Shown here piece after piece: positions 10,010 to 53,326 of a stretch of DNA of 64,000 nt (positions are counted from its first letter, which is position 1; each line of letters starts with the position of its first letter). Source of the DNA: Myxococcota bacterium (GTDB lineage Bacteria > Myxococcota > Kuafuiibacteriia > Kuafuiibacteriales > Kuafuiibacteriaceae); contig JAYZDF010000063.1 in NCBI GenBank assembly GCA_036337945.1, forward strand, positions 26,560 to 90,559, written 5' to 3'. The position numbers were made by a program, and so were the translations under genes. Below the pieces are notes generated by a model. The model did not search any database. It saw only the letters and a list, made by a program, of their open reading frames with translations, and was not told the origin of the DNA.

Positions 10010-10060
10010 TTTACTTTGCCCCTTAACTCTATCCTATAAAACCGCAAACCAGGCCTGATC

Positions 10061-10076
10061 GCAAATTGTCAGCCTT
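10061..10076 (-). promoter_or_regulatory. candidate sigma-54 (-24/-12) promoter for the pilin gene
   Basis: Minus-strand sequence AAGGCTGACAATTTGCGA has GG-N10-GC spacing with a TTGC -12 element, about 50 nt upstream of the pilin ATG. pilA genes are commonly RpoN-dependent. Confidence 0.3.
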
Positions 10077-10209
10077 ATTTTCGGTCAACAACCTCTATTC
10101 CAAGCCACAATCTATGCAGACTTCGCGCCAGTCTCATTTCCCGAAGTTATTGTGCGAATGGTGACGATTTTTGTCACATTTGTTCCAAACGTTGTCAGTT
10201 TAGCGTCCG

Positions 10210-24418: not shown

Positions 24419-25417
24419 TTGAACATGTTTGAGAGTTTCGATACTGCGCCTCAAATTGTACACATTGATCGTCCGGAACTTGGGCTAACGGCATTTATCG
24501 TAATCGATCAACCGTCTTTCGAAATCTCGGCGGGAGGCGTTCGGACGAAAACATACCCCAGTAATGCCGCAGCACTCGACGACGCCAAGGCGCTCGCACG
24601 TGCAATGACGATCAAGTGCGCTTTGGGAGGTCTGCCCGTTGGCGGCGCAAAAGCCGTCGTAAAGTTACATGCTGGACTTCATCGTGAAAAGGCATTCATC
24701 TATTTGGGGGAGGTCGTAGAGTCTCTCGCCGGCAGGTTTCGGACGGCTGGGGATCTCGGCACGTTTGAGCACGACCTGCAGCTGATGGCTACCAGGACAG
24801 ACTTTGTTCACACGAATGAGCAAGCACTTGGTCGCTCAGTAGCACTTGGTTTATTGGCCTGTGTAGAAAGCGTTCGGTCTGAGATATTCGCCGACGGTCC
24901 GGCTGTTCTTCGTGTTTCCGTACAAGGAGCGGGAGCGATAGGTTCGTCCGTTGCAAAGGAACTTTCAGCTAATGGTTATAAAGTCATTGTATCGGATCTA
25001 GATGAGACAAAAGCCCTAGCAACCGGACATTCTGTCTTACCGGCTTGTGAAAGCCTGTGTGCGGAGGTGGATATTTTGTCTCCGTGCGCGATTGGTGGTG
25101 TTATCTCGGACTCGACGTGGTCCAAGCTTCGCTCAAAACTTATCTGTGGCGCAGCCAATAACATCGTATCTAGTCTGGACGTTCACTGGCATCTCCATCG
25201 AAAAGGAGCGGTTTTTATTCCGGATGTTGTGAGCTCTGCTGGCGCGGTTGTTGATGGAATTGGGGAGTCGGTCTTAGGAATGAGCGACCGAACAAGCTTG
25301 ATACTAAAGCTGGGTGAAACGGCGAAGCAAGTTTTTCAAATTTCGCAAAAGAACGACGAGCCACCACACCTCGCGGCACTGGGCCTAGCCGCGTCTCGCA
25401 TCGCTTCAAGAAACTAG
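24419..25417 (+). CDS. Glu/Leu/Phe/Val dehydrogenase family enzyme (leucine/phenylalanine dehydrogenase-like)
   Basis: ISAGGVRTKTY and ARAMTIKCALGGLPVGGAKAVVK align with LeuDH GGTRMWMY / GLNLGGGK motifs. Rossmann motif VQGAGAIGSSVA. 5 nt downstream of the VKOR gene. Confidence 0.6.
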   Translation: MNMFESFDTAPQIVHIDRPELGLTAFIVIDQPSFEISAGGVRTKTYPSNAAALDDAKALARAMTIKCALGGLPVGGAKAVVKLHAGLHREKAFIYLGEVVESLAGRFRTAGDLGTFEHDLQLMATRTDFVHTNEQALGRSVALGLLACVESVRSEIFADGPAVLRVSVQGAGAIGSSVAKELSANGYKVIVSDLDETKALATGHSVLPACESLCAEVDILSPCAIGGVISDSTWSKLRSKLICGAANNIVSSLDVHWHLHRKGAVFIPDVVSSAGAVVDGIGESVLGMSDRTSLILKLGETAKQVFQISQKNDEPPHLAALGLAASRIASRN

Positions 25418-27729
25418 GTTTTTACTTTCTTAGTCTCTTTGCTCTTTTTCTCTGCCTTCTCTGTTTGAGAGAATGAAAGCGTTAGTTGGCCTTCTGCGTC
25501 GTCAGAACCTTCGACTCCGACGTCGACATGGCCTCCCTGACTGAGTTCTCCAAACAATATTGCGTCCGCAAGTCGCTTCTTGAGCTCGTTTTGGATCACT
25601 CTAGCCATCGGTCGCGCTCCGTACTGTTTTGAGTAACCTTTTTTTGCCAGCCATTTTCTAGCGTCGATAGAAAGGTCAATTGTGACTTTCTTTTCTGCGA
25701 GTTGTACATCAAGCTCGTTGATAAACTTGTCTACGACCATCAATACAACCTCTTCTGGAAGTTGTCCGAAATTGATGATTCCGTCGAGACGGTTTCTAAA
25801 TTCCGGAGAGAAGACTCGCTCGAGTTCTTTTTTGCCGTCGTTAGCTTCAGCTTCACGACCAAACCCAATTTTTGCACTTGCAAGGTCCCGCGAACCAGCA
25901 TTCGTGGTCATGATTAATATGATATTTCTGAAGTCAGCCTTACGTCCTGTGTTGTCGGTCAGACTAGCATGGTCCATCACCTGCAACAGTACGTTGTAAA
26001 TGTCGGTATGTGCTTTTTCTATTTCATCGAGCAAGACCACGCAGTAAGGCGTTTTTCTGACGGCGTCTGTGAGAAGCCCACCTTGCTCGAATCCGACATA
26101 TCCCGGAGGAGCGCCGATTAGTCTAGAAACGGCATGTTTCTCCATGTACTCCGACATATCAAACCGAAGAAACTCAATTCCCATCACTCGAGCCAATTGT
26201 TTCGCCAACTCGGTTTTTCCAACGCCGGTCGGTCCTGCGAATAAGAATGAGCCCGTCGGTTTGTCCGCTGCACCGAGTCCGGACCTCGAGAGTTTGATCG
26301 CCGAGGCCAGAGAATCGATGGCATAGTCTTGGCCGAAAATGACCATCTTCAGGTCGCCTTCGAGTGTCTTGAGCCCTAATCGGTCATTCACCGAAACTGA
26401 TTTCGGTGGAATTTGCGCAATTTTTGAAACGACTGCCTCTATGTCCTTTGGTGTGATTCGAGACTTCCGTTTTTCGGCTGGCTGTAAGTGCGTCGCCGCA
26501 CCTGCTTCATCGATCACGTCGATCGCCTTATCTGGTAAGAATCTTTCATTAATGTGTTTTGCAGATAGTTCCGCCGCCGTTCTCAGCGCACGGTCACTGT
26601 ATTTCACTTGATGATGTTCTTCGTATCTGGAGCGTAGACCTTTTAGAATCTGAGTCGTTTCATCAATACTGGGTTCATCGACCCGAATTTTCTGGAACCG
26701 CCTAGCTAGCGCGTGGTCTTTTTCTATCGAACTTTTGTAATCTCGATGTGTGGTCGAACCCATACAGCGAAGTTCACCGGACTGGAGCGCTGGTTTGAGC
26801 AGATTCGACGCGTCCATTGCACTGTCATGGGTGGCTCCAGCACCAACCACTGTATGAATTTCATCGATGAAAATGATGGCGTATTCGACTTTCTTTATTG
26901 CTTTGAGAACGCCTTTTAGCCGCTCTTCAAATTCACCGCGGAATTTGGTTCCCGCAATCAGCGCTCCCATATCCAACGAATAAATCGTTGCGTTGGCTAA
27001 TACTTCGGGAACTTGCTTGTCGTGGATTCGCATTGCGAGGCCTTCGGCGAGGGCAGTTTTGCCTACCCCTGGCTCACCAACAAAGATCGGGTTATTTTTT
27101 CGCCGCCGACACAAGATTTGAATCGTCCGCTCTATTTCGCGGTCTCTGCCAATGAGAGGGTCGATATTCCCCGCGGCGGCAGCTTCGTTGAGGTTTACGG
27201 TAAATGCTTTGAGTGGATCACTTTCTTTTGCACCCGCAGCCGTATTCTCGTCCCCTGCAGTATCCTCGAAACCATGGTCTCCGTCGGGAGGCGACACTTT
27301 GCTGATTCCGTGCGAAAGATAACGAACAACATCAAGACGTGTAATGCTTTGCTCCTGTAATAGGTACACAGCGTACGATTCGTGCTCTCGGTAAAACGCG
27401 ACCAATAAGTTGCTCGTGTGAAGTTCGTCTCTGCCCGAAGAATGAACGTGCATGAGAGCACGTTGGAACACTCGGCTGAACATCTGTGTTTGTTCCGGTT
27501 CGACCTTCGTTCCTTCTGGAAGTGCTTCCATGCTATCGGTCAGATAAAGTTCCAGCTCTTCTCGTAATTTTTCTATATCACCGCCGCATGCGATGATGAT
27601 TTTCTTACAGGTTTCATCGTCGATAAGGGCGAATAGTACGTGCTCCAAGGTCACGTACTCATGACGTCGGTTAGCGGCCTCATTATATGCTCGGCTCAGT
27701 GATTCTTTGAGTGCTTCTGTATATTCCAT
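25414..27729 (-). CDS. clpA: ATP-dependent Clp protease ATP-binding subunit ClpA
   Basis: N-domain [35 protein letters not shown]. Two AAA+ modules, each with a Walker A ([16 protein letters not shown]). Directly follows clpS. Confidence 0.95.
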
Positions 27730-27731
27730 GC

Positions 27732-28037
27732 TTACTCAGGCTCCATGGTGCATTCCAGAGGAAAATCATATTTCCTCGCTAGTTCAACCGTTTTCGCCGT
27801 TTTGGTTTCCGCGATTTCCTTTGTGTAGGTCCCTGCCACGCCTATTCCAGCTTGATGTACGTGCATCATAATTTGAAAAGCACTGTCCTGGTCGCGATTG
27901 AAGACAGACATGAGTACGGAGACAACGAACTCCATGGTTGTGTAGTCGTCATTGTGCAGTAGAACCTTATATTTCCCTGGCTTCTTGAGCTTCTTCTTCG
28001 GTCGCGTAAGAACGTCGCTCTGTCGCTTTGTACTCAT
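27732..28037 (-). CDS. clpS: ATP-dependent Clp protease adaptor ClpS
   Basis: 101-aa protein with KVLLHNDDYTTMEFVV...VHQAG core, immediately upstream of clpA. Confidence 0.9.
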   Translation of the reverse strand: MSTKRQSDVLTRPKKKLKKPGKYKVLLHNDDYTTMEFVVSVLMSVFNRDQDSAFQIMMHVHQAGIGVAGTYTKEIAETKTAKTVELARKYDFPLECTMEPE

Positions 28038-38441: not shown

Positions 38442-41400
38442 ATGGGATATTCAAGAACGTTTTTGAACAGAATCGGGTTTTGTTTGCTGTTTGCAGCAGG
38501 CCTTCCAAAGTGCAGTTGTGACGAATCCGGCGGGATTCAGAGAGCCGCTGTCGAGATGAAGCTGACGCTGATGGAAGTTGATCCGTGCTTGCAACAAGCC
38601 ATCGGCCGAGACATCCCGGACGACTACGAAAGCATCAACCTGGCACAAGTGACAGACTTTGGCTCTAAGGGTGAAAGAATCTTTGAGATTCGCTCGATCG
38701 GAACTGCCCCTCTTCAAGTTCAAGCTGTGTCTCTTTCCGAAGTCGATGAAGAATTCACACTCGAAGTTCTTGATAACCAAGATCAGCCGCTCGTTTTACC
38801 CGCGGTTCTCACGCCGACTGCAGACGTTAATGCTCCGCCAGCGATAAAAGTGAAGGTCTCTTACTCCGCAGTCGACGCCGAGCCAGACTCGATAAAATTA
38901 TTGATTGAAACGGATGATCCCAATCGAAGTAACATCGAATTTGGTCTTTCTGCAGGGAAGGGCAAACTGGAAATATGCGGCACAAACGGCTGTGCAGAGG
39001 GTGCTAGCGTTGAATTTGGCGATGTTCCGCAAAATGAATCTGCAACTCAACAGCTGACGTTGAAGAATGTTGGTGAGGGAGACCTTGATATTCGGTCGCT
39101 GACCCTTGCTTCTCTGTCATCAGAGTTTTGTGCGCCGGAAGTGACGAGCATTGAGGGTAGTGTTCCGGGCTGCAATTTGGTTCAGCTCTGCACTACTCTT
39201 AAACCGGGCGAAGAATACGTAGTCAACGTCACCTACACACCCGCGGACGGTGGAGAAGATACCGGCGTAATTCGCGTCGTTTCTGGTGATGCAACTCAGG
39301 GGACCATTGAAGTTCCAATTAATGGAGTTGGATCAGGTCCTGCCGTTTGTGCTTGTTTGGTTGACGGAAGTGATTGCAACCCTGTGTCGACCGTCGATTT
39401 TGGATTTGTTGATATTGGCGATACGAAGTCACAAATCGTGCGTCTGACCTCGTGTGGAACGGAGCCGGTTGATCTCGTCGAAGCTGGACTCGAGACCGAT
39501 GCTTCGAGCTTTTACAACACAGATCCTGAATTCATGATGGTTCGCAACTTTGCGCCAGGTAATTTACAGCCTGGGGATTTCACGGAAGGAGAAATCACTT
39601 ACTCGCCGGTCACAGGTGGAGAAAACCGGGGTGGCATTCGGTTTCGTTCGATGCAGCAGGCCTCGCCAAGCTGGATTGCCCTCGTTGGTAAGACAGCGAC
39701 ATGTGATTTAGAGGCTGTACCTGGTCAACTCAACTTTGGCTCGATTGCCGGCGGCGCAACCGCAGACCGCACGGTCATCCTGAGCAATAACGGAGCAGCC
39801 GATTGCGTCATCAGTGCCATCAACGATCCCAGCTCCGCGGAGTTCACGTTCACAAATAAACCGATGTTGCCTCTGACAATTGGGCCGGGAGCATCTGAAA
39901 GCTTGACGGTTCGATACGCCTCACCAGTTCGCGCGACGCCAACTGGCGATAGCGCGACTTTCGTCGTTACTTCGAACGAACCCGCTCCAGATCAAGACGT
40001 CACAGTCAGTCTTGTCGCACAAGGCGGCGGCGCTGCAACTTGCGCGATTGACGTTCAACCTACAGGCGCAACCTTCGGTACTCGCGACGGCCAACTGTTA
40101 TTTGGTGCGGTTAACATCGGCTACAGTCAAACGCAATCGATTCGGGTGACTAATGTCGGCAACGCAAATTGCGAAATAACTTCTTTCAACATGACCGTTC
40201 AAGATCCCGGCGAATTCTCAGTTGCAGCTATGCCACTGCCGATCGTTATTGCTCCTCAAGCGACGGGCACCATTGACGTTACTTTTGCTCCAACGCATCC
40301 AATCATGGGAGGTCTCATACCGTTCCCTTGGTACGGCACAATTAGAAACTACGTTGATTTCGTTGTAGCCGGTCCAGGACTGGTCAAGACAGACTGGTCG
40401 ATCGGTATTCGCGCAACTCCAACGGAGCCAACGATCGACATCATTCCTGGAGAGCTCGATTTTGGAGTGGTCACGTTCGATAATCCGCGCCAGCCAGACA
40501 ATCGCAGCAGCTGTGGTTCTGAACGTCGTACTCTCCGAGTATACAACTCGGGTTCTGGAGATTTGGCTGTTACCTCTGTCTACATTGATACAACTTCAGA
40601 TTCCGTATTTGAAATCTCCGGGGTGTCTAAGAATGGTAATCCACTCTCACCACCTTATGCTGCGACTGTTGCGCCTGGCGAAAATATGGAATTAACCTTG
40701 CGCTTCTTCCCCACTCGCATAAGTCCAGCACAACACTCAGGTTTGTTGGTCATTGAAAATGATGTGACCATGCAAAGTACAGTGCCGCTGTCAGGTGAGG
40801 GAACAGCCAATGCTCAGCAAACAGATATTTTTGAGCAGCTGACGGAAAATAAGGTCGATATTTTATGGGTGATCGACGATTCCGGCTCAATGAGCGAAGA
40901 GCAAAGTAATCTCGCGAGCAACATCACCTGGTTCACTCAATATGCAAACAGCATCAACGTCGACTGGCAGATGGGCGTGACTACTACCGAAGTTAACGAT
41001 GCGGTCTCGGGTCATATTTGGGGCTGCAGTGGGTTCAACAAGATCATCACCCATAGTGACCCCATGAACGTTCAGGCGTTTCAGTGTGCCGCTCGGGTGA
41101 CCAATCCACCTAACGGGAACTCTCGTCCCAACCAGGGAGGTTCGGATGAACAAGAAGCTGGTCTAAAGGCGGCTCGAATTGCCCTTGATGCGCCGGTTCG
41201 CGATAATGAGAACGCAGGTTTCCTTCGCGCTGATGCTCGTCTTGCAATCATTATCGTATCCGACGAGGAAGATCAGTCGGATGGTGGCGTCAACTTGTAC
41301 GTTGATTTCTTCAAACAACTCAAAGGCTTTAGGAATCCTCAGCTGGTGAGCGTATCAGCAATCACGGGTGATGTTCCTAACGGCTGCGCCACAGCAGATG

Positions 41401-41711
41401 CAGCACCTCGATACGCAGACGCTGTCTCTCAGCTAAACGGGCAGTTTGAATCTATCTGTAACCAGGATTGGACGACAATGCTGCAAAACATCGGGCTCGA
41501 TGTTTTCGCACTTCGTACAACTTGGACGCTCAGTCGACCTGCTGACCAAAGCACAATTACCGTACGAGTGAACGGAAATGTTCTTTCGCCAGGTAGCTCT
41601 AACGGATGGACTTTCGACCCAACAACAAATGCCGTGACGATGAATGGCTCGGGGATCCCCCAGCCTGGATCACGGATCGAGATTCAATACACTGCGCAAT
41701 GTTTGCCATAA
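38442..41711 (+). CDS. large secreted adhesin-like protein with at least 6 choice-of-anchor-D / ASH-type beta-sandwich repeats and a C-terminal von Willebrand factor A domain
   Basis: Signal peptide with Cys (LPKCSC). Repeats of the form [LV]xFGxVxxG(x6-8)LxNxGxxxLxI, for example VEFGDVPQNESATQQLTLKNVGEGDLDI, VDFGFVDIGDTKSQIVRLTSCGTEPVDL, LNFGSIAGGATADRTVILSNNGAADCVI. MIDAS motif ILWVIDDSGSM. Confidence 0.75.
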   Translation: MGYSRTFLNRIGFCLLFAAGLPKCSCDESGGIQRAAVEMKLTLMEVDPCLQQAIGRDIPDDYESINLAQVTDFGSKGERIFEIRSIGTAPLQVQAVSLSEVDEEFTLEVLDNQDQPLVLPAVLTPTADVNAPPAIKVKVSYSAVDAEPDSIKLLIETDDPNRSNIEFGLSAGKGKLEICGTNGCAEGASVEFGDVPQNESATQQLTLKNVGEGDLDIRSLTLASLSSEFCAPEVTSIEGSVPGCNLVQLCTTLKPGEEYVVNVTYTPADGGEDTGVIRVVSGDATQGTIEVPINGVGSGPAVCACLVDGSDCNPVSTVDFGFVDIGDTKSQIVRLTSCGTEPVDLVEAGLETDASSFYNTDPEFMMVRNFAPGNLQPGDFTEGEITYSPVTGGENRGGIRFRSMQQASPSWIALVGKTATCDLEAVPGQLNFGSIAGGATADRTVILSNNGAADCVISAINDPSSAEFTFTNKPMLPLTIGPGASESLTVRYASPVRATPTGDSATFVVTSNEPAPDQDVTVSLVAQGGGAATCAIDVQPTGATFGTRDGQLLFGAVNIGYSQTQSIRVTNVGNANCEITSFNMTVQDPGEFSVAAMPLPIVIAPQATGTIDVTFAPTHPIMGGLIPFPWYGTIRNYVDFVVAGPGLVKTDWSIGIRATPTEPTIDIIPGELDFGVVTFDNPRQPDNRSSCGSERRTLRVYNSGSGDLAVTSVYIDTTSDSVFEISGVSKNGNPLSPPYAATVAPGENMELTLRFFPTRISPAQHSGLLVIENDVTMQSTVPLSGEGTANAQQTDIFEQLTENKVDILWVIDDSGSMSEEQSNLASNITWFTQYANSINVDWQMGVTTTEVNDAVSGHIWGCSGFNKIITHSDPMNVQAFQCAARVTNPPNGNSRPNQGGSDEQEAGLKAARIALDAPVRDNENAGFLRADARLAIIIVSDEEDQSDGGVNLYVDFFKQLKGFRNPQLVSVSAITGDVPNGCATADAAPRYADAVSQLNGQFESICNQDWTTMLQNIGLDVFALRTTWTLSRPADQSTITVRVNGNVLSPGSSNGWTFDPTTNAVTMNGSGIPQPGSRIEIQYTAQCLP

Positions 41712-41762: not shown

Positions 41763-43130
41763 TTGTTCTATAACCGCTACGTCGTGGCTCGGTTTCCCGT
41801 AGATGCAGAAGGCCCGCGTTATAAACGCTCCGGTCGACTCAAACGCTTTGTGCGTCTGAGCACCGCTGCAGCCTCTATTGCCGGCTCTGCGGTCGTGAAG
41901 CGAGTTGGTCAAAAGCTCAAGTCCCAGGAGGACGACCAAGCGGATGCTTTGAGGGATGCCTTAGTAGGACAGGCAGACCATTTAGTAAAAACAATGGGAG
42001 AAATGAAGGGCGCGGCTATGAAGATCGGCCAAATGCTGTCTGTAGCGCCGGATGTTGTTCCGAGGGAATTCGCAGAAAAAATTAAAGCTCTCCAGGCAGA
42101 GTCAGTGCCGATGCCATACGAGTTGGTTTCAGAACAAATTGAAAAGTCACTAGGCCTGCCGCTCGTTGATGTATTTCATTATTTCGACCCGGAACCCATT
42201 GGTGCTGCTTCTATTGGTCAGGTTCACAAAGCTCGATTGTTCGACGGACGTGAAGTTGCAGTTAAAATTCAATATCCCGACATTAAAGATACCTTAGAAG
42301 CAGATCTCAAAAACCTTGGAAATTTAGCCGGACTGACGTTGGCCTTCGCTGACAAAAGCATCGTGGACGATTTCATGGAAGAAATACGTCAAGGAATCAT
42401 GGACGAGGCGGATTACAACAAAGAAGCCGAAAGCTTAAAAAAGTATGGTGCAATTCTTTCTGAGCATCCTGATATTGTTGTCCCAAGAGTGGTTGATGAA
42501 TATTCTGGAGATTGTGTCCTCACCATGGAATTCATGGAAGGGCAAAAACTAGATGTAGCTGTGGATGCACTTCCCACCCAAGAAGAAAAAGACCGGGTTG
42601 GTTATATGTTCTCAGAAATCTATGTTTGGATGTTCCATGAAAAATTTCTTCTGCATGCAGACCCGCATCCTGGTAATTTTCTCCTCACGCCGGATAAGAA
42701 AATTGGCATGCTGGATTTCGGTTGTATCAGGGAATATGACCCCGAGTTCTGCGACACTTGGTTAGAGATTCTTATCGCGAAATGGAATCACGACAAGGAC
42801 GATCTTCCTCGAGTCTTCAAAAAACTAGGCTTTACGGGCATGCGTGGGAGTGCTGGTGCAAATGCATCACAACTTAATGAAATCGCCGAAATGACCGTCA
42901 CCCCGTTTTTATACGATCGTACATTTGATTGGGGGGAGTGGCATCCCCAAGAAGAACTCAATCAGTTTTTCCGCGGCAACCTTGGGCTCATGCAATATGC
43001 GTCTCCTCCGAAGGCTATTTTCTATTTCCGAGTGGCCTTAGGTGTCTGGGGCTTCTTGCAACGCTGCCACATCAAGGGGAATTGGTACAAGCTGGCGCGA
43101 GAAGTAGCCGAAAAACGCGGAAAGCTGTAG
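41763..43130 (+). CDS. ABC1/UbiB-family atypical protein kinase
   Basis: KIGQMLS...PIGAASIGQVHKARL..GREVAVKIQYP and FHADPHPGNFLL...IGMLDFG. Confidence 0.8.
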   Translation: MFYNRYVVARFPVDAEGPRYKRSGRLKRFVRLSTAAASIAGSAVVKRVGQKLKSQEDDQADALRDALVGQADHLVKTMGEMKGAAMKIGQMLSVAPDVVPREFAEKIKALQAESVPMPYELVSEQIEKSLGLPLVDVFHYFDPEPIGAASIGQVHKARLFDGREVAVKIQYPDIKDTLEADLKNLGNLAGLTLAFADKSIVDDFMEEIRQGIMDEADYNKEAESLKKYGAILSEHPDIVVPRVVDEYSGDCVLTMEFMEGQKLDVAVDALPTQEEKDRVGYMFSEIYVWMFHEKFLLHADPHPGNFLLTPDKKIGMLDFGCIREYDPEFCDTWLEILIAKWNHDKDDLPRVFKKLGFTGMRGSAGANASQLNEIAEMTVTPFLYDRTFDWGEWHPQEELNQFFRGNLGLMQYASPPKAIFYFRVALGVWGFLQRCHIKGNWYKLAREVAEKRGKL

Positions 43131-43143: not shown

Positions 43144-44115
43144 GTGACAACACAAAGTCGTTATCAACTCCGAAGCTTGTCTCTTGGCGAGATATTGGAT
43201 GAATCTTTCATCTTATTTAGGGAAAGCTGGCTAAAGCTCATCGTCTTTCAGCTCATCGTGTTTGTCCCAACAGCTCTCATTGAAATTCTTGTCATTCGAT
43301 ACATCGGCAATTTAGCTCTGAACTATCTCAACTCGGGAGCTACAAGCGAAGAATGGGGTGGCGGAGCGCTCGTTTTCTTATTGAGCGGAGGCATGTCGAT
43401 ATTTGTGATTCAAATGATTGTCGCTCCCGTTGTCGGTTGTGTCCTTACGAAAGCGATTGCTGATTCTTACTTGTCGAAACGCTGGGGGATGCGTGAGCTG
43501 GTGAATGCTGCCATCAAATATGCTTTGCCCGCAATTGGGCTAGGTGTACTCGTAGCTGGAATTTGGATGCTCACGATTTGCATCCCTGTCTCCATTGGCG
43601 TTTCGCTTGCCTATGTTACTGTTGCAACCGGCAGTGTCTCTGGTCTCCTCACGTTTGTGCTTTACGGACTCGTCGCCATCATTTTTGGAGTCCCTGCCTT
43701 ACTGGGAGGCATTTATGTAAACTTGCGGTTTGCGCTCGCCTTCTGCGTCATGGTCCTCGAGGACAAGAAAATAGTCGATAGTCTTTCTCGTTCAGCGCGC
43801 CTGATGTCCGGGAGATATTGGGACGCATTCTCCTTGTGGTTCGTAATGTTCCTTATTTCAGTACTGCTCGGATTCGTTGCGACGTTATTTGTACCAAGTC
43901 CCTCTTTCGAAATGCTTCAGAGTGCACAATTACGGGAGCTAGTTCCTCAATTGGTTTCGTCTCAATCAATATCAACTGTATTGAGCGAATTTATGGGAAT
44001 GTTCAGTCGAACATTTATCGTTATTTGCTGGACACTTTATTACTTTTCAACTCGCTGTCGCCGAGAAGCTTTCGACTTAGTCATGCTATCGAAGAGCTTC
44101 GTGAAGAGGGCGTAA
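43144..44115 (+). CDS. polytopic membrane protein (DUF975 / GP-PDE-membrane-domain-like)
   Basis: N-terminus SLGEILDESFILFRESWLKL followed by 6-7 hydrophobic helices. 14 nt after the ABC1 kinase gene. Confidence 0.5.
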   Translation: MTTQSRYQLRSLSLGEILDESFILFRESWLKLIVFQLIVFVPTALIEILVIRYIGNLALNYLNSGATSEEWGGGALVFLLSGGMSIFVIQMIVAPVVGCVLTKAIADSYLSKRWGMRELVNAAIKYALPAIGLGVLVAGIWMLTICIPVSIGVSLAYVTVATGSVSGLLTFVLYGLVAIIFGVPALLGGIYVNLRFALAFCVMVLEDKKIVDSLSRSARLMSGRYWDAFSLWFVMFLISVLLGFVATLFVPSPSFEMLQSAQLRELVPQLVSSQSISTVLSEFMGMFSRTFIVICWTLYYFSTRCRREAFDLVMLSKSFVKRA

Positions 44116-44116: not shown

Positions 44117-44761
44117 ATGTCACTTCCTCCTTCCGCAAGGGCTTTGGATATACATAAAGAAATCGAGTCGATCGTTTCGCAGCCAGAATATCGTCTCCAT
44201 GAAAATGAGGCGGAGAGTGTCCTAGAGGGTATAGGGAGTCTTGCGCAGGAAATTGTTACGTTCGCCCAAAAATTTCTTAACCAACTTTCTGACACAAACC
44301 CTATTGTTTTTTATATTATCCTTATCGGAGCGAGTGGATCTCTTCTTTTCCTTGCTTGGTGGAATATTCAGCAATTGAGGTTAGGGGCAATAAAGACCAG
44401 GAAGTCACATTTTGAAGGGAGCGGGACTTTTTATAGCCAGAACGCTCTGACCAAAAACATTAAAAGAGAGCTTGAGGAGGCCATTCGCGAGGACCAGTAT
44501 CTGAAGGCACTTCGAGCTCTTTTTCGCTTATATGTCATAGACCAAGAAGACGAGTTACGCAGTCTGGGTGTGGCATTGGGTACTCTAGACAGTCTGACCG
44601 TGCGAGAGGTTCTTGGGAGTTTGCCTAAAGAAAAAATTAAGGAGCTTGAACGGAATCAGGTTCTTAGCATCTTGGAAAAGAGCTTTTACGATAAATACGC
44701 TCTTTCGAAAGAAGACGTAAACGTTGTTGCTGAAGCGCTTGAGTACGAGAGACTGGCCTAG
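44117..44761 (+). CDS. hypothetical single-pass membrane protein (possibly DUF4129-like), in the MoxR-associated cluster
   Basis: Central TM IVFYIILIGASGSLLFLAWW. Starts 2 nt after the upstream gene. Confidence 0.45.
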   Translation: MSLPPSARALDIHKEIESIVSQPEYRLHENEAESVLEGIGSLAQEIVTFAQKFLNQLSDTNPIVFYIILIGASGSLLFLAWWNIQQLRLGAIKTRKSHFEGSGTFYSQNALTKNIKRELEEAIREDQYLKALRALFRLYVIDQEDELRSLGVALGTLDSLTVREVLGSLPKEKIKELERNQVLSILEKSFYDKYALSKEDVNVVAEALEYERLA

Positions 44762-44763: not shown

Positions 44764-46068
44764 ATGAAAAGCGTCAAAGAGATTATTCTTTTTCTCGTCA
44801 CGTTCGCAGTGGTTCCTAGCACGCTAGGAATAATTCTTTACCGCGATAATCCCGCTGTTCCTACCTCTAGTTACTCCACATCTCCTAATGGACATAAGGC
44901 ACTATACCAGCTCCTTTCTGCTTTTAATTATCAGTTGTCTCGTCGTCATATTGCCATCGATAAACGAATAGATGAAAGTGCGACCCTCATCGCGATCGAG
45001 CCCGGTGGGACATTTTTTCGTGATTTTCAAACAAAGTCAGATTCTTTTGTACGTTGGCTCCAAGACGGAAACTCAGCGCTTATAACCCTTGACTCAGATC
45101 CCGATAGTCTTGCTCAAAGAGACGATAGAGAAATCAAACGGATAGCTTGGATGCAGCGGGCAAAAGACTCTGTTGCCAACTTAGAGGAAACAGTGACGAC
45201 GACCAATGGAGAAACACGAGAACTTGTTCCGTCGTCAACGAAACGCAAAACTGAAGGCCCTTCTTATCTTTCGAAACTTTCGAAGTGGCTCACTATTTCT
45301 ATTCAAAGCAAAAGACACGATACGCTTGGTTTTGGTGATGTTCTTGTCACAAAGAGTGCAAAATCACCTTTAGACGGTTTGAAGCTTAGGGTTACGAGAC
45401 CGCGATTATTACAAGTCGACGCTCGTTATGAACTTGTGACGTCTGACGCCGGAACTCTGGTAGCCGCATTTCCTGTCGGGAAAGGTTCGGTATTTGTTCT
45501 TTCGGAACCTCGTTTGTTTCAAAATATGAATATTGCAAGGGGGGAAAATGCAATATTCGCGCTTCGATTGATTGAAGGTCTCGTGACGACTCCGAAAACC
45601 TCGCAACTTATCTTCGAAGAATTCAGTCACGCCGTAGCGCAAAGGTACACTTGGTCCGCATTCTTCTTAGACACTCCCAATGTTTACCTCTTTATGAGTT
45701 TTTTGCTTATTCTCGTCATAGCAGTATGGCAGCAAATGCCCCGCGAGTTTTCTCCAAAAAAGCTCAAGACCCAATCATTAAGCGCTCAGGCATCCATGAC
45801 CTCCGCGCTCGCCGGTCTTTATCGATTGACTCCTTCAACGAAAGAGCTTGCCTCAGCTTATCGTGAGTATTCTTTGCTGAGACTGAAGTACATGGTGTAC
45901 TTGCGAGGAGATACGAACCTTTACTCGGCTCTTGCCGAGACGACAAGTTTATCTCAGGAGGAGCTTGAAAGCATTTTTGAGCAACCTGACAATTTATCCA
46001 ATGACATTTTTGACCAAATTCGACGACAGCAAGAAGCTACTCGCATTTGTTTACAAAAAAATAATTGA
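44764..46068 (+). CDS. DUF4350-like membrane protein (TM helices at both ends), MoxR-associated
   Basis: N-terminal TM ILFLVTFAVVPSTLGIILY and near-C-terminal TM LFMSFLLILVIAVW. Precedes MoxR, as in the known DUF4129/DUF4350/MoxR/DUF58 clusters. Confidence 0.5.
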   Translation: MKSVKEIILFLVTFAVVPSTLGIILYRDNPAVPTSSYSTSPNGHKALYQLLSAFNYQLSRRHIAIDKRIDESATLIAIEPGGTFFRDFQTKSDSFVRWLQDGNSALITLDSDPDSLAQRDDREIKRIAWMQRAKDSVANLEETVTTTNGETRELVPSSTKRKTEGPSYLSKLSKWLTISIQSKRHDTLGFGDVLVTKSAKSPLDGLKLRVTRPRLLQVDARYELVTSDAGTLVAAFPVGKGSVFVLSEPRLFQNMNIARGENAIFALRLIEGLVTTPKTSQLIFEEFSHAVAQRYTWSAFFLDTPNVYLFMSFLLILVIAVWQQMPREFSPKKLKTQSLSAQASMTSALAGLYRLTPSTKELASAYREYSLLRLKYMVYLRGDTNLYSALAETTSLSQEELESIFEQPDNLSNDIFDQIRRQQEATRICLQKNN

Positions 46069-46119: not shown

Positions 46120-47070
46120 ATGGAAGATCAAGTAGGCCTTGTCCAGAGTGTCGTCTCAAAGGGCGTAGGAGAAGTTGAAAAAATTATTTTCGGACAACGA
46201 GAATGTGTAATATCTGCCTATGTAGCATTGCTCTCAGGCGGACACTTATTGCTTGAAGGGGTGCCCGGGTTAGGAAAGACCTTGTTGGCTAAAAGCATCG
46301 CACAGACCGTGGATTGTGCTTTTGGACGAGTGCAGTTCACTCCAGACCTTATGCCGCTAGATATTATTGGTTCTAGTATTCTTCAAGAAAACCGATTTGT
46401 GTTTCACAGCGGACCAATATTCACAGATCTTTTACTTGCCGATGAAATTAATCGTGCTCCATCAAAGACGCAGAGCGCTCTTTTAGAGGCAATGCAAGAA
46501 GGTACGGTGACAGCCGATGGCGTAACACACCAGCTATCGGATTATTTCACGGTTATCGCCACTCAAAACCCGATTGATCAGGAAGGTACATATCCATTGC
46601 CTGAATCGGAAATCGATCGCTTCATGATGAAAGTAGTTATCGACTTTCCATCCGAGGAAGATGAGCTTCGTGTGATGAGCACTCATCATAGTCGTACCTC
46701 TGCTTTGACGAAGGACGATATTCAACCGGTGATTGATCGCACTGAACTTACGAACCTTCGGAACCTGGTTATGGATGTCTCAATCTCCGAAGACGTTATG
46801 ACATACGCGAACAGCCTTGTCCGAGCCACGAGGCAACATATTTCTGTTATGCACGGTGCTTCTCCACGGGCGGGAATATCTTTATTAAAGGCATGTAAAG
46901 CAAGTGCGGCAATTGATGGGCGTGCTTTCATTACACCTGATGACGTCAAACGATGGAGTTTACCGGTACTAAGGCACCGCCTGGTTTTAAAACCAGGTGC
47001 CGAGCTCAGCGGAACTTCTTCTGATGATGTGATACGAAATATTCTGGCCACAATGTCGGTGCCTACATAA
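46120..47070 (+). CDS. MoxR-family AAA+ ATPase
   Basis: GHLLLEGVPGLGKTLLAKSIA Walker A, LLADEINRAPSKTQSALLEAMQE Walker B/sensor region, about 316 aa. Confidence 0.9.
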   Translation: MEDQVGLVQSVVSKGVGEVEKIIFGQRECVISAYVALLSGGHLLLEGVPGLGKTLLAKSIAQTVDCAFGRVQFTPDLMPLDIIGSSILQENRFVFHSGPIFTDLLLADEINRAPSKTQSALLEAMQEGTVTADGVTHQLSDYFTVIATQNPIDQEGTYPLPESEIDRFMMKVVIDFPSEEDELRVMSTHHSRTSALTKDDIQPVIDRTELTNLRNLVMDVSISEDVMTYANSLVRATRQHISVMHGASPRAGISLLKACKASAAIDGRAFITPDDVKRWSLPVLRHRLVLKPGAELSGTSSDDVIRNILATMSVPT

Positions 47071-47076
47071 GTCTCG

Positions 47077-48513
47077 CTAAGTCTTGGGAGCTAAGACAAA
47101 CCTTATGGATTCATGGAGTTCGGAGTTTTTAATCTTGTCTTGACCCATGTTGGAATTCACCACGATTCGGGATGGGTTTTTTCTTTTTTCTTTTGGCTGC
47201 TTTAGTGAGCCCCCATGAGGCGCTCTGATAAAGGTATAGCCTTCGTTATATCCATCAAAAAGAAAAAGATACTCAGTGTCTTCCGAAGCGAGGCCCAGAA
47301 AGATCGGAGGAATTCTAAAATGTTCTGTAGATTTAGCTTTGAGGAAACTAATTGCCTTTGCCGGGCTTGTGATAATTCTAAATTCTAGACCGTATACCTC
47401 GCACAAAACTCTGGCGAGAACGTCAACATCTACAGAGCTACTGCCGGGCATAATCAAAGCTTCTTGTCCTCGCATGCCTTGTGGAAAGGCAACATCAAGT
47501 AGTCCTTCTAAAACTACTCCCATGAGATTAGGTTTGTGTGCCAGGCTATTTTGTTCGTGTAATCTCAATTGATGTTGGCTTGGCAGGTCAATAGTCGTCG
47601 TGCTCGTGACTTCATTCCAATATCGAAGCATTTCCGCGGGTGCATCAGAATACAAAGCAAATTCAATAGTGCGAAGCACGCTTGCACCTCCTTTCCCACG
47701 AATGATTGACGCGGGGCGAGCGAGTCTCTGAAGGGCCTGTCCAACGAACTCCTGGTGCAAAAAGCCTTGCCGAGTGAGGGCAGCGGATATTTTTGTTTTG
47801 TTAATAAAATCATCCAAACTGCTTACAAACGGTACATCCCGAAAGTCCGTATCTACGAACACGGAGCGATTACCCAATCGACGTTGACTGATCTCAACTA
47901 GGAGTTCTTTTTCGAGGGGAGATAATATTTCAAACATTTGCACTGCGGCTTTCTGTTGCAATACAGAAATTTCATGTAAACCGGACTGACAAGTGAGTTT
48001 ATAAGTTTGGCGAAGTTCTTCTAAAGGCTGGGGTGAATTAGCAATAAGGCGCAAAAGGATCTCCTGAAGTCCTGTGTCCAAATTGATGAATTTCTGGGCG
48101 TAAATTAGCCGCTGTAAGGCTCTTCTAGGCGAATTTGTAGCGTCTTCGAGTTTTCTACTCTCATGGACCCCTGTGAAAATAGTATCTAGAGTTTCTTTCT
48201 CGTTCGCAGAGAGTGCCGCCAAGGTGTCATCTTTGAGAGGCAGCTCAACGTCCACGATAACCCGCTCGTTAGAATGACATATAGACGATTCGTTCGTCGA
48301 GTGGCTCTTCTCTTTGCTTCTATATTCTTTCTGCTCTTCGTGGCTTTTGCTGCTAACCTCTTTGGTTATTTCGGTCGTTTCACTATCGACAGGCGGAACG
48401 GGCGGGGGTGAGGGAAAGTAACGACTACGTTCAGATGAAGCATTCTGAGTTTTTTTCTCTCGAATCTCCAAGGTGCCAACTTCGCGTTGGGACAGGGGTC
48501 GCTTTTTACTCAT
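47077..48513 (-). CDS. hypothetical orphan protein (disordered Ser/Lys/Glu-rich N-terminus plus about 350-aa folded domain) encoded antisense between MoxR and DUF58
   Basis: 478-aa uninterrupted ORF with no recognisable family motif. Confidence 0.5.
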   Translation of the reverse strand: MSKKRPLSQREVGTLEIREKKTQNASSERSRYFPSPPPVPPVDSETTEITKEVSSKSHEEQKEYRSKEKSHSTNESSICHSNERVIVDVELPLKDDTLAALSANEKETLDTIFTGVHESRKLEDATNSPRRALQRLIYAQKFINLDTGLQEILLRLIANSPQPLEELRQTYKLTCQSGLHEISVLQQKAAVQMFEILSPLEKELLVEISQRRLGNRSVFVDTDFRDVPFVSSLDDFINKTKISAALTRQGFLHQEFVGQALQRLARPASIIRGKGGASVLRTIEFALYSDAPAEMLRYWNEVTSTTTIDLPSQHQLRLHEQNSLAHKPNLMGVVLEGLLDVAFPQGMRGQEALIMPGSSSVDVDVLARVLCEVYGLEFRIITSPAKAISFLKAKSTEHFRIPPIFLGLASEDTEYLFLFDGYNEGYTFIRAPHGGSLKQPKEKRKNPSRIVVNSNMGQDKIKNSELHESIRFVLAPKT

Positions 48514-48543
48514 GACGATGCCACTCTAACACGGGAGCACTAA

Positions 48544-49899
48544 GTGCACGAAGTATCGCATCTTCAGAGAATTCTAGGTCTTAGGCCGAGAACAGAGTTT
48601 CTAATCCTTTTGGTCATAGGATTTGTAACGTCGTTAGCAGGGCTAACGATGGCTCTGAATTTTATCCCTTGGTTGATTGGCTGGCATGTTTTGATCATAT
48701 CAATCGGACTTTTGGATGTGGCTTTCTTGCTGAGGGGTCATAAGTTTCATTTTTCGCGCCAGGTTCCAGAAGTCTTGTCTTGTGGTGATGAGTTTGAGAT
48801 TCAATACTCACTGAGAAGTTCTAAGCCTATTGAAGTATTCATTCGTGATGAGCATCCGCTCGAAATTTCGAGCCTTTCGAGCGAAAAAAATTTTGAGTGG
48901 CGACGAATAACCCATGAAGTACAAAGGTGGTCCGAGCGTTTTTCTGCAAACAAGCGTGGAAATTGTAGATGGACAAAGAGCAACTTAATCATTCGAAGTC
49001 CTCTTCGAATGTGGGCCCAAAGGCTTCAGCCCCAATTACCTGTATCTGTACTGAAAATTTTTCCGCGTCTTTCTTCGAGTGATTCAAATCTCTATGATCC
49101 AACACTTTTGCTTGCCGAGTTTGGAATTCGCCCCAAGGGAAGAAGACGCGGTGTTGGTCAAGAGTTTCGTCGTTTAAGACCACTAAGCCCAGGGGATAGC
49201 ATTCGACGAATTGATTGGAGAGCAACGGCGAGAAGCCAACGACATATGGTAAGAGAATATCAACCAGATGAACGTTCAGAGGTGCTGCTTTGTTTAGACT
49301 TCGGTCGATTGATGGGGGTAAGGAACAGCGATGACCGCACAAAATTGGATGAAGCGATTGATGCGGTAGCGCGATTTGCCTTGGTCGCAATTGCGTCTGG
49401 CGACAAGGTGGGAATACTAACGTTTGGTGACCGAGTTCGAGACTTCGTGCCTCCGGCTGACGGAACTATGCAATTTCGCTTGCTTCTTGAGAGTATCTAC
49501 GATCTGAAGGCTTCACAGAATGAGTCGAATTTTACCGCGACTTTTAGCAAGATATCGCAGGCGAACTTTAAGCATTCGCTTATTGTTTTCTTCACGGATT
49601 TTGTTGATCAACGCAGTGCCGATGACCTTTTGCGTAGTTTGAACCTCTTGGTGAAGAAACATCGGATTCTGTTCGTGAGTATTTCTGATCCTGCCTCTGA
49701 AGACGTCATTTATGAGCCGGTTCAATCAACAGAACAACTTTCCCTTTCGTTGGCGGCCTTACATTTGAGTTTAGAAAGAGACCGGCTGACTCATAAAATT
49801 AGTCGTCTTGGAATTGAGGCCTTAGACCTTGGCCCAGATGAACTTACCTCAGGTGCAATTAATGCATATTTGCAGCTTCGCCACCGAGGAGATATTTAG
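48544..49899 (+). CDS. DUF58 domain protein (MoxR partner, vWA-like fold) with an N-terminal TM hairpin
   Basis: RRGVGQEFRRLRPLSPGDSIRRIDWRATARSQRHMVREYQPDE is the DUF58 hallmark. Confidence 0.8.
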   Translation: MHEVSHLQRILGLRPRTEFLILLVIGFVTSLAGLTMALNFIPWLIGWHVLIISIGLLDVAFLLRGHKFHFSRQVPEVLSCGDEFEIQYSLRSSKPIEVFIRDEHPLEISSLSSEKNFEWRRITHEVQRWSERFSANKRGNCRWTKSNLIIRSPLRMWAQRLQPQLPVSVLKIFPRLSSSDSNLYDPTLLLAEFGIRPKGRRRGVGQEFRRLRPLSPGDSIRRIDWRATARSQRHMVREYQPDERSEVLLCLDFGRLMGVRNSDDRTKLDEAIDAVARFALVAIASGDKVGILTFGDRVRDFVPPADGTMQFRLLLESIYDLKASQNESNFTATFSKISQANFKHSLIVFFTDFVDQRSADDLLRSLNLLVKKHRILFVSISDPASEDVIYEPVQSTEQLSLSLAALHLSLERDRLTHKISRLGIEALDLGPDELTSGAINAYLQLRHRGDI

Positions 49900-49985: not shown

Positions 49986-50768
49986 ATGGGTGGTGGAATC
50001 ACGATTAAGAGCCATGCTGAAATCGACGCAATGCGCGTCGCATGCAGACTTGCGGCGAAAACGCTCAAGTTAGCAGGTGAACTGGTCAAACCTGGCATTT
50101 GTACTGATGACATCAATCGCTTTGTCCATGAGTACACACTCGATAACGGCGCCACTCCTGCGCCTCTCAATTACCATGGCTTTCCAAAGTCAGTATGTAC
50201 TTCGATCAATGAAGTCGTCTGTCATGGAATTCCATCGTCAAAAGAGTTCCTGAAGGAAGGAGATATCGTAAATATTGATGTGACAACCATCGTCGATGGA
50301 TTTCACGGAGATACGTCTCGAACCTTCTTCGTAGGTGCAGTATCGCCCGAACTAAAGAAACTAGTTGAGGTCACGTGGGAGTGTCTTCATCGAGGGATTG
50401 CTCAGGTAAAGCCAGGTGCAAGGATCCGAGAGATCGGCGGAGCGATTCAAGATTACGCAGAACCTTTTGGGTACGGCGTTGTGAGAGAGTACGTTGGCCA
50501 CGGCATCGGTCGTGGATTTCACGAAGACCCACAAATTCCTCACTATCGAGCGAAAGGGAAGAATCCTCGACTTCGTAAAGGGATGACTTTCACAATTGAA
50601 CCTATGATCAATCTTGGAACTCACGAAACGGTACTTGACTCAGACGATGGTTGGACGGTGAGGACTTTAGATAATCGCCATTCTGCTCAGTTTGAGCATA
50701 CTGTCCTTTGTTGTGACGAAGGTGTCGAAATACTGACTGACTGGAAATTTATCGATCAACCGGTGTAG
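49986..50768 (+). CDS. map: type I methionine aminopeptidase
   Basis: CHGIP, DIVNIDVT, GFHGDTS, HGIGRGFHE and the EPM/EHT metal-ligand motifs. Confidence 0.9.
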   Translation: MGGGITIKSHAEIDAMRVACRLAAKTLKLAGELVKPGICTDDINRFVHEYTLDNGATPAPLNYHGFPKSVCTSINEVVCHGIPSSKEFLKEGDIVNIDVTTIVDGFHGDTSRTFFVGAVSPELKKLVEVTWECLHRGIAQVKPGARIREIGGAIQDYAEPFGYGVVREYVGHGIGRGFHEDPQIPHYRAKGKNPRLRKGMTFTIEPMINLGTHETVLDSDDGWTVRTLDNRHSAQFEHTVLCCDEGVEILTDWKFIDQPV

Positions 50769-51810: not shown

Positions 51811-52518
51811 ATGAAACTGCTACTTTTCGACATTGATGGCACGCTTATTCAGTGTGGCGGAGCAGGTCGCGCAGCGCTTTCTCAGGCTGTTGACGAGGTG
51901 TACGAAGCGAAAAAGATTATGGACCAAGTCCGCCTTGCTGGCGGAACTGACTACGGAATCTTCGATGCAATATTTCTCGCCCATTTTGGTCGATTACCTA
52001 CTGAAATTTCGGAGTTTACAGAAGGTCTGGATCGATATCTTGAGCTATTGCCAAAAAACCTGAGGAGTAGCGATTATAACTTTAGAATTCTCCCCGGTGC
52101 GACGGCAGCGATTAAACGTCTTGCTGCAGACCCAAATTATTTGCTCGGTATTGCAACAGGTAACGTTGAACTTGGCGCCAGAGCGAAGCTGGAGCGCGCG
52201 GATTTGTGGCACTATTTTCCTCTGGGCGGCTTTGGTTCAGATTCGAAATTTCGTAGTGGGCTCGTTTCGAAGGCGATAGAGCGTGCGGAGCAATATACTG
52301 ACGAAAGAAATTTACCTCGAATCAAGAAAGAGGATATTTTTGTGATCGGAGATACTGAATTCGACATTCGCTCAGCTCATGACGTGGGTGTGAAATCGAT
52401 AGGTGTTCGAGTTGGTTCCTCTCATGTAAACGATATGATTCAAGAAAAACCCAGCTTTCTTGTTGATTCTTTAGAGGATGTTGAGTTTTGGCAGGCGATC
52501 GGGCTCGATCATGCTTGA
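51811..52518 (+). CDS. HAD-superfamily hydrolase (phosphoglycolate-phosphatase-like)
   Basis: Motif I LLFDIDGTL, motif II IATGN and motif IV VIGDTEFD. Confidence 0.75.
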   Translation: MKLLLFDIDGTLIQCGGAGRAALSQAVDEVYEAKKIMDQVRLAGGTDYGIFDAIFLAHFGRLPTEISEFTEGLDRYLELLPKNLRSSDYNFRILPGATAAIKRLAADPNYLLGIATGNVELGARAKLERADLWHYFPLGGFGSDSKFRSGLVSKAIERAEQYTDERNLPRIKKEDIFVIGDTEFDIRSAHDVGVKSIGVRVGSSHVNDMIQEKPSFLVDSLEDVEFWQAIGLDHA

Positions 52519-53326
52519 CCGACTTCATGCGGTTGCGCTTTGTCCTTGCGTGATGCTTCGCTACTGCGTTTTTTGCTCGCTCGTCCTTATACTGGTTGGT
52601 TGCCCTCGAAAAGGAGAAGAGGAGCTTCGAAAAGGGAATGCCTACTTCGCGACCAAAAATTACGAAAAAGCGGCCGCTGCCTATGAAGCTGCGTCCTCTG
52701 CTAATCCGAAGAGTGCCCGCGGACCAGAAGCCAGAGGAAATGTTGCGTTTGAACAAGGAGACTTCAAGCTTGCAGAAACTTGGTACCGAAAAGCATTGGA
52801 AGCCAACCCGAGACACGTGACTTCGCGGCATAAGCTAGCATTGACCTTGGCCACGATGGAACGATTTGACGATGCGATTGCCGAGCTACAAAAGAGCGTC
52901 GAGGTTGCCGCTGATAATCCCTATGCACTGAGTATGATAGGCGGTCTGTATCGTAAACAAGGAAAGCTCCAAGAGGCAGTGAATATGCAATTACGCGCGC
53001 TAGACGTTGACGACAGCTATCATGCAGCCCGGTATGCTCTGGGGAATTTACTGGTGGATACGGGCAAGCTTCAAGACGCAGAACGTCAATTTGAAATACT
53101 GATGACGAGAGAACAAACCGCACTCAGTGAATATGGATATGCTCGACTTTCTGCCAAACGTGGTGATGCGAAGAAAACAGCGTTTTATCTAAACTCAATT
53201 GTGAAGCGCGGAGTTCAACAGCCAAAGAGAATTTTAGACGACCCAATATTCAAGCCTTTATGGACAGAAAAGCAAATGAGTATGCTTAGAACACGGCTTT
53301 CAACCGCGACTTCGACGTCAAGCTAG
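52511..53326 (+). CDS. TPR-repeat lipoprotein
   Basis: Lipobox LILVGC. TPR units (GNAYFATKNYEKAAAAYEAA...). Preferred ATG at 52511 gives an ATGCTTGA 8-nt overlap with the HAD gene stop. Confidence 0.6.
   Translation: MLDRLHAVALCPCVMLRYCVFCSLVLILVGCPRKGEEELRKGNAYFATKNYEKAAAAYEAASSANPKSARGPEARGNVAFEQGDFKLAETWYRKALEANPRHVTSRHKLALTLATMERFDDAIAELQKSVEVAADNPYALSMIGGLYRKQGKLQEAVNMQLRALDVDDSYHAARYALGNLLVDTGKLQDAERQFEILMTREQTALSEYGYARLSAKRGDAKKTAFYLNSIVKRGVQQPKRILDDPIFKPLWTEKQMSMLRTRLSTATSTSS

Follow-up and report, generated by a model that had tools for sequence, protein, structure and literature searches.

A clade-specific split of the MoxR–DUF58 module by an opposite-strand gene of a previously unannotated protein family in uncultured Myxococcota

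Introduction

MoxR-type ATPases of the AAA_3 group and DUF58 proteins with a vWA domain make up a module whose canonical form was reportedly set out by Snider and Houry in 2006 and by Wong and Houry in 2012, and canonical clusters often include a papain-fold transglutaminase-like protein. MoxR–DUF58 modules are widespread, and their cellular role is largely unknown. The set formed by DUF4350, MoxR and vWA proteins has been predicted to act as a membrane-associated complex (Makarova et al. 2015, PMC5898192). Here, we analysed a 64-kb stretch of contig JAYZDF010000063.1 from a Myxococcota bacterium (hereafter, the window), in which moxR and the DUF58 gene are parted by a gene for a 478-aa protein on the opposite strand, which we call X. 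The locus has the same domain set as the canonical module with its DUF4350 and DUF4129 membrane partners, in the same order.

A noncontiguous operon was reportedly described in Staphylococcus aureus (menE-menC-MW1733-ytkD-MW1731) by Saenz-Lahoya and colleagues in 2019. In such operons, linked co-directional genes are parted by a gene on the opposite strand, and the spacing forces antisense overlap (PMC11034616). The gene layout of the X locus is similar. In contrast with the described examples, the embedded gene encodes a large protein (478 aa) and survives the loss of the flanking genes, conservation of the layout spans much deeper divergence than theirs, the host group is Myxococcota rather than Firmicutes, and in two lineages the opposite-strand island is shared with a second gene. 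In excludons, known from Listeria, the untranslated regions of divergent or convergent neighbours overlap and expression is mutually exclusive (PMC7154746; ExcludonFinder, PMC12288877). X is likewise flanked by a 30-nt head-to-head and a 6-nt tail-to-tail junction; however, excludons are defined from mapped long untranslated regions, whereas the X locus is known from sequence, and both ends of X would be involved at once. In both noncontiguous operons and excludons, the overlapping transcripts repress each other (PMC11034616, PMC7154746, PMC12288877).

Ternary systems, in which a MoxR–vWA pair is joined by a conserved additional protein (VMAP, iSTAND, FtsH or beta-propeller), are enriched in deltaproteobacteria-type lineages (Kaur et al. 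2020, PMC7159879). X resembles these in accompanying such a pair; it differs in being antisense and in persisting without the pair, and its vWA partner is a plain DUF58 protein without effector domains.

Results and discussion

An opposite-strand gene between moxR and DUF58

The core of the locus comprises the following features (window coordinates).

46120..47070, plus strand: moxR, encoding a soluble MoxR-type AAA+ ATPase of 316 aa (AAA_3, full profile, E-value 6.9e-59; AAA_lid_2, E-value 1.1e-22)
47071..47076, no strand: 6-nt spacer, stop codon to stop codon, separating the convergent genes moxR and X (from the sequence)
47077..48513, minus strand: X, whose cytoplasmic product of 478 aa belongs to a new, unannotated family and has its folded domain (residues ~90–478) at 47080–48246
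48244..48513, minus strand: disordered N-terminal tail of X, residues 1–90 (predicted local distance difference test, pLDDT, below 50; composition; alignments)
48514..48543, no strand: 30-nt spacer between the divergent starts of X (ATG) and the DUF58 gene (GTG) (sequence and three-way alignment)
48544..49899, plus strand: DUF58/vWA protein of 451 aa with two N-terminal transmembrane (TM)-like segments (DUF58, E-value 9.2e-31; VWA_2, E-value 7e-9)

The open reading frame (ORF) map and Pfam searches placed moxR, the minus-strand ORF and DUF58 at the coordinates and on the strands given by an earlier note on this DNA. The moxR product has the AAA_3 core and AAA_lid_2 of MoxR proteins and falls within their expected length of ~310–330 aa, and the DUF58 protein carries its DUF58 domain with an embedded vWA fold behind N-terminal TM-like segments. 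Hydropathy analysis indicated that the DUF58 protein is membrane-anchored, as are the DUF4350 protein and the 323-aa and 214-aa proteins encoded upstream, and that MoxR and X have no TM-like segment. The locus is, thus, the familiar module of membrane protein, DUF4129, DUF4350, MoxR and DUF58 in its usual gene order, plus X.

A canonical MoxR–DUF58 operon has moxR immediately before a co-directional DUF58 gene. In the window, the two are 1473 nt apart, a distance that holds X on the minus strand. A DUF58-anchored scan of metagenomes retrieved 80 loci, and moxR was visible upstream in 63 of them. In 61 of these 63 loci, moxR abuts the co-directional DUF58 gene, the gap being estimated at −75 to +280 nt; in the two others, moxR and DUF58 are split, and both carry an X homologue between them. 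The near-universal adjacency and co-direction of the pair that the earlier note had assumed therefore hold in this sample, and the X clade, which always splits the pair with X, is its sole exception. Among the 63 sampled modules, the split is exceptional and specific to X-bearing genomes.

X is a real gene with a family of its own

Nothing beyond the missing annotation speaks for the idea that the minus-strand ORF is spurious and that the 1.4 kb are a non-coding spacer or an antisense artefact, an idea that we find barely conceivable. The ratio of nonsynonymous to synonymous substitution rates (dN/dS) of X is 0.17 and 0.13 against orthologues at about 76–77% and 61% identity, a range similar to that of DUF58 (0.13) and DUF4350 (0.12), with moxR at 0.06, and the plus-strand frames across X hold only short ORFs of at most 98 aa. 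An exhaustive profile search recovered 62 cluster representatives (clusters at 50% identity) at E-values below 1e-3, with 26 of them below 1e-30; 14 residues are invariant in the family, and the predicted fold is confident. The label 'orphan' that the earlier note attached to the ORF is inaccurate, and the possibility it raised that the ORF is spurious is refuted by these data. Members of the family share the C-terminal ~380 residues and vary in N-terminal length. A profile search of a word-indexed protein database returned only five matches and added nothing. All members with a named source are 'hypothetical proteins' from metagenome-assembled genomes (MAGs) of uncultured Myxococcota or 'Deltaproteobacteria'. 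To date, the family is known from no source other than uncultured Myxococcota-type MAGs and metagenome contigs.

The X protein of the window has no Pfam or NCBIfam match, and the 33 members that were aligned showed no recurrent Pfam family even at E-values up to 10. Searches against PDB sequences gave no match with either a single sequence or a profile, even at an E-value of 10, and the weak partial homologues P0053–P0063 carry no informative domains. No significant match to an anti-phage defence model was found: PADLOC returned only JetC (E-value 0.0021, 13.5 bits) and HEase (E-value 0.014), both on low-complexity stretches and rejected as noise. X is a real, vertically inherited gene for a cytoplasmic protein of a previously unannotated family.

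The split is old rather than recently acquired

A search with an eight-sequence sub-alignment of the X family brought up related loci, which we refer to by L and P labels. The antisense position of X between moxR and DUF58 is shared by nine lineages, in which its identity falls to as little as about 28%.

Window
L001, about 77% identity
L003, 61% identity
L008/P0005, about 29% identity
L005/P0006, about 28% identity
L019/P0015
L010
L012
L022

That a gene without database annotation breaks a normally contiguous pair could, taken by itself, suggest that X is a foreign gene recently inserted into a formerly contiguous moxR–DUF58 operon of this genome, as the earlier note had proposed among its options. 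Orthologues in the same slot of nine such divergent lineages, and X in all sampled relatives of the locus, speak against this. The composition of X is native, with a G+C content of 0.452 against 0.445–0.466 in its neighbours, a typical G+C content at third codon positions and synonymous codon usage that matches the window (z = 0.01), and no repeats or mobile-element genes were found in its flanks. Moreover, X co-diverges with its neighbours: across six loci, its pairwise identities and those of MoxR and DUF58 are correlated (r 0.95–0.98), as expected under joint vertical inheritance. Synteny and composition refute a recent acquisition, to which we give almost no credence. The earlier note had also held that its proposal would fall if relatives showed the same insert as a conserved known gene; the insert is indeed conserved, and it is not a known gene, being unannotated.

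In L002 (JGI Ga0163109_10000016, 11432–12382), moxR was called as two fragments of 148 and 154 aa. Because moxR is intact in the near-identical ENA contig L001, the break is probably a sequencing or assembly frameshift rather than a pseudogene.

X outlives the module

In at least eight related lineages, X is retained, together with its N-terminal motifs, within the same broader neighbourhood, and the locus has neither moxR nor DUF58. Their usual neighbourhood consists of an M23 peptidase, a 1089-aa Ig-repeat/VWA lipoprotein, X and then either methionine aminopeptidase (MAP) or a START-domain operon; MAP is the direct divergent neighbour of X in several of them. The window counterparts of two of these genes and the loci without moxR are as follows.

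38442..41711, plus strand: Ig-repeat (ASH/HYDIN-like) lipoprotein-like protein of 1089 aa (Pfam; signal-like N-terminus; MIDAS motif)
49986..50768, plus strand: MAP (M24), downstream of and co-directional with DUF58 (tblastn synteny; Pfam on relatives)
L014 and L015: the Ig-repeat gene, X and MAP in direct succession
L009: module replaced by a hybrid histidine kinase
L011: module replaced by an MMPL protein and a phosphodiesterase
L017, L020 and the P0025 locus: X without adjacent moxR or DUF58
L018: incomplete, with X the last gene of the contig stretch examined and its downstream side unseen

In the loci examined, moxR and DUF58 are always present together or absent together beside X, showing that they are still a functional pair across it. 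Trees of X were built by neighbour joining only, with midpoint rooting and 200 bootstraps on fast distances. In them, lineages with moxR fall into three deep clades, interleaved with lineages that lack it, and were monophyletic in none of the 200 bootstraps. L009 and L011, without moxR, grouped with the moxR-bearing L010 and L012 in 134 of 200 bootstraps, and the P0031 clade, also without moxR, grouped with L010 and L012 to the exclusion of the other moxR-bearing clades in 198 of 200. The layout of the split is intricate and does not differ between the loci that have it, which makes one ancient origin with several later losses of the pair the parsimonious reading. The split looks ancestral, predating the radiation of the clade, with repeated paired losses of moxR and DUF58.

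The Ig-repeat gene is the usual 3′-side neighbour of the X block, whether moxR and DUF58 are there or not, and was found in L001, L005, L009, L010, L012, L014, L015, L019 and L020. Besides a lipoprotein-like signal (…LPKCSC), the protein carries DDSGS, a vWA MIDAS motif, in its C-terminal part (residue 812). With 98% identity to its L001 orthologue, it is far more conserved than its neighbours (77–97%). As a second vWA protein next to the module, it might in turn be a client of MoxR. In L020 (6010–10836) and the P0025 locus, X closes a co-directional run of genes for proteins of ~67, ~185 and ~470 aa and a START-domain protein. The ~67-, ~185- and ~470-aa proteins of this run had no Pfam match, and the same small-gene trio is found in L015 (5837–7982) on the other side of MAP. 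The trio may be a second conserved association of X.

Anatomy and predicted fold of X

The first ~90 residues of X consist to 58% of S, K, E, T and P and are predicted to be disordered, with pLDDT below 50 for residues 1–86. They contain a basic motif, TLEIREKK, at residues 14–21 (48451–48474; family consensus TLQVRVRxKNPxIERK) and an acidic motif, DSETTEIT, at residues 43–50 (48364–48387; family consensus DDDATEI). Across the family, the order is basic motif, acidic motif, a variable low-complexity linker and the C-terminal domain. The disordered N-terminus and unrecognisable domain that the earlier note had read from the ORF were thus borne out, the folded domain being ~380 aa long and free of Pfam, NCBIfam and PDB sequence matches.

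An AlphaFold2 model built from the 33-sequence alignment reached a pLDDT of 82.9 and a predicted template-modelling score of 0.77; with only three close orthologues as input, the model was unusable (pLDDT 33). Residues ~95–345 are modelled as helical and residues ~360–478 as alpha/beta. A Foldseek comparison with the PDB gave best matches with E-values of 0.015–0.3, probabilities up to 0.97 and TM-scores of at most 0.37, none of them significant, and a viral fold library gave nothing significant. The best matches were recurrently of the papain clan (calpain, C39 ComA/PCAT1, Josephin and pro-papain), with ~280 aligned columns to calpain cores. As in papain-like clan CA cores (calpain PC1-PC2, C39 ComA/PCAT1, Josephin), a helical part is followed in X by a beta-rich part. 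X nevertheless differs from them, with no sequence-level link, the low TM-scores already given and no conserved cysteine: no alignment column reaches 30% Cys among the 33 members. His433 is present in 27 of the 33 and is R or Q in the remainder. The residues that are invariant are mostly charged (R211, D223, R297, E414, R444 and R449, plus S128).

A cysteine protease identity was rejected because the family has no conserved Cys. A papain-like fold for X is faintly suggested by the modelled structure and stands as an unproven lead. Since the catalytic Cys is lacking, X is probably non-proteolytic, and its domain is probably non-catalytic as well. The locus thus adds a new, unannotated family with a confidently predicted but unassigned fold, and X is a lead gene for studying how MoxR–DUF58 modules are regulated.

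Junction geometry and its probable consequences for transcription

Both junctions of X are tight. Between the moxR and X stop codons there are 6 nt in the window and 6, 10, 15, 18 and 19 nt in other lineages. Neither a stable or conserved hairpin (z-scores −1.1 to +1.6) nor a T-tract is present at this junction, and no terminator was found. At the other end, the 30-nt spacer between X and DUF58 is conserved and largely occupied by two ribosome-binding regions. The GTG start of DUF58 is conserved, as is a GGGAG Shine-Dalgarno sequence 5–6 nt upstream of it, and because these two elements and the encoded first TM helix are all conserved, the short spacer is real. It measures 16, 24, ~30 and ~45 nt in other lineages with moxR, and 2 nt by gene call in L019, where the start of X may lie further downstream. 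X and MAP are separated by an ordinary 92–188 nt in loci without moxR.

The public gene call of the L001 DUF58 orthologue starts 35 codons downstream (48649 against 48544) and gives a protein of 416 aa that drops the first TM helix. The longer, 451-aa form is supported because the GTG, the GGGAG and the encoded N-terminus are conserved, the latter from residue 1 in L001 and L003 and from residue 5 in L005.

As 30 nt, mostly ribosome-binding, are too short for two promoters, the promoter of X probably lies inside DUF58, and DUF58 would be either driven by a promoter inside X or read through from moxR. Similarly, 6 nt are too short for a terminator, so that the moxR and X transcripts are expected to overlap at their 3′ ends. 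In such an arrangement, the promoter and terminator of each gene would sit within the coding sequence of its neighbour, the transcripts of X and of the module would overlap in antisense, and the likeliest consequence would be reciprocal, mutually dampening expression of X and the module, as in noncontiguous operons and excludons. The layout is that of a noncontiguous operon, with linked co-directional moxR and DUF58 genes flanking the opposite-strand X. No terminator above chance was detected between moxR and DUF58, a result that is permissive of read-through and not proof of it. We regard the locus as a candidate deeply conserved noncontiguous operon or excludon, and as such it is a natural and evolutionarily validated candidate for testing this kind of regulation, and its selection, outside the few model species.

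We are highly confident of the observed parts of this account, namely that X is a real gene, that it has a family, that the arrangement is ancient, that the split is exceptional and that the junctions are tight. For the statement as a whole, in which an ancestral antisense split with tight junctions also couples the regulation of X and the module, we lean slightly towards acceptance. Several points weigh against it. Scans for promoters and terminators gave results at chance level, and a synonymous-site test for embedded promoters was not significant (X codons 1–40, +1.5 standard deviations) and was underpowered, with one close comparator. L012 and L019 have an extra gene between X and moxR, so that a single moxR-to-DUF58 transcript, which would there cross 2.5–3.5 kb of antisense, is less obviously universal. 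The overlap could be smaller if the mRNAs are leaderless or their termination depends on Rho, and the ancestry of the layout is read from trees of X obtained by a single method, neighbour joining, with the midpoint as root. Finally, noncontiguous operons are not predictable computationally and need transcriptomes (Iturbe et al. 2024 atlas, PMC11034616).

The extra genes in the antisense island are both co-directional with X. In L019, at 9411–9986 (plus strand), the gene encodes a protein of 191 aa with a prepilin-type N-terminal methylation motif (E-value 5e-9); in L012, at about 9282–10760 (plus strand), it is an ORF of ~490 aa with a hydrophobic N-terminus. The island tolerates additions on the 3′ side of X.

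Alternative explanations and possible roles of X

The arrangement might instead be a neutral positional relic of an ancient rearrangement, with compact or leaderless promoters, Rho-dependent termination and an overlap devoid of regulatory meaning. X is anchored to its wider neighbourhood (M23 peptidase, Ig-repeat gene, X, MAP) regardless of the module, L012 and L019 accommodate an additional gene between X and moxR, and neither significant synonymous-site constraint nor a promoter signal was seen, as such a relic would have it. Yet the junctions stay compact (6–19 nt at the moxR side and about 16–45 nt at the DUF58 side) though the X proteins are only 28–30% identical, the X/MAP spacers relax to 92–188 nt where moxR is missing, the split is unique to X loci among the 63 sampled modules, and some overlap of transcripts is physically hard to avoid at such spacing. 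We consider a neutral relic possible but doubtful, and prefer the ancestral split with regulatory coupling.

X could also be a dedicated third component of a MoxR–DUF58 chaperone machine, as client, adaptor or regulator, its embedding reflecting physical co-function, in analogy to the third proteins of the MoxR–vWA ternary systems. The embedded position has been kept over deep divergence in nine lineages, X co-diverges with MoxR and DUF58, and its long disordered tail carries conserved short motifs of a type open to capture by a vWA domain or an AAA+ pore. MoxR–vWA pairs are also known to recruit lineage-specific third components (PMC7159879), and the faint papain/calpain-like fold of X recalls the papain-fold transglutaminase-like protein of canonical clusters; X might stand in for a TgpA-like component. 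On the other hand, X and its motifs persist in at least eight lineages without moxR and DUF58 at the locus, a position on the opposite strand is unusual for co-functioning subunits, VMAP, iSTAND and other domains known to go with MoxR are missing from X, and its fold matches are not significant. Across the 33 members, no VMAP, iSTAND, FtsH or beta-propeller Pfam domain was found; a lone match to VMAP-M0 (E-value 2.1) is noise. As X persists where moxR and DUF58 have been lost from the locus, it is not an obligate MoxR partner and needs no adjacent pair. Of the earlier suggestion of a lineage-specific partner or substrate of MoxR, then, the deep positional conservation is in keeping with it and the survival of X in at least eight loci without the module runs counter to it. 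Since X outlives the module, guilt by association would over-read it as a MoxR partner, and we think this role unlikely. A more elaborate version, in which X would be a dedicated antagonist or checkpoint of the MoxR–DUF58 machine, that is, a papain-fold pseudoenzyme whose tail is captured by the vWA or AAA+ protein and whose expression is mutually exclusive with theirs through a noncontiguous operon, is speculative and in our judgement quite improbable; if true, it would represent a very deeply conserved noncontiguous operon outside the Firmicutes examples known to us. The reading of the locus with the best support is an ancient, clade-specific split of the known MoxR–DUF58 module by a conserved gene for a cytoplasmic protein, at junctions so tight that antisense overlap of the transcripts would be enforced; with it comes an uncharacterised protein family.

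Flanking genes and other observations in the window

Upstream of moxR, four plus-strand genes complete the co-directional block.

41763..43130, plus strand: ABC1 atypical kinase, first gene of the block (PF03109, E-value 6.6e-63; syntenic in L001, L005, L019 and L022)
43144..44115, plus strand: membrane protein of 323 aa with several TM-like segments (weak GPDPase_memb/DUF975/DUF7847 matches, also in orthologues)
44117..44761, plus strand: single-TM protein of 214 aa, probably DUF4129-like (TM-like segment at residues 60–84)
44764..46068, plus strand: DUF4350 membrane-anchored protein (PF14258, E-value 6.6e-12; N- and C-terminal TM-like segments)

These genes agree with the earlier description of ABC1 kinase, DUF975-like, single-TM and DUF4350-like genes, the DUF975 similarity being weak only. 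The L005 orthologue of the 214-aa protein gave a weak DUF4129 match in Pfam (E-value 0.015, profile positions 5–68 of 69).

Across the 64 kb, no tRNA genes and no Rfam match at the gathering threshold were found, and the only tandem repeat is a trivial one at 43235–43263. Downstream of the module, a HAD hydrolase ORF (51811–52518, plus strand) overlaps a TPR ORF (52478–53326, plus strand) by 41 nt as listed. The pair is also tightly packed in L001, with an 8-nt overlap in the gene calls, and the TPR gene probably starts downstream of its longest-ORF start. Large secreted or surface proteins (FG-GAP, Big_7 and TPR) abound in the window, which also encodes a ClpA/B-type ATPase at 25414–27735.

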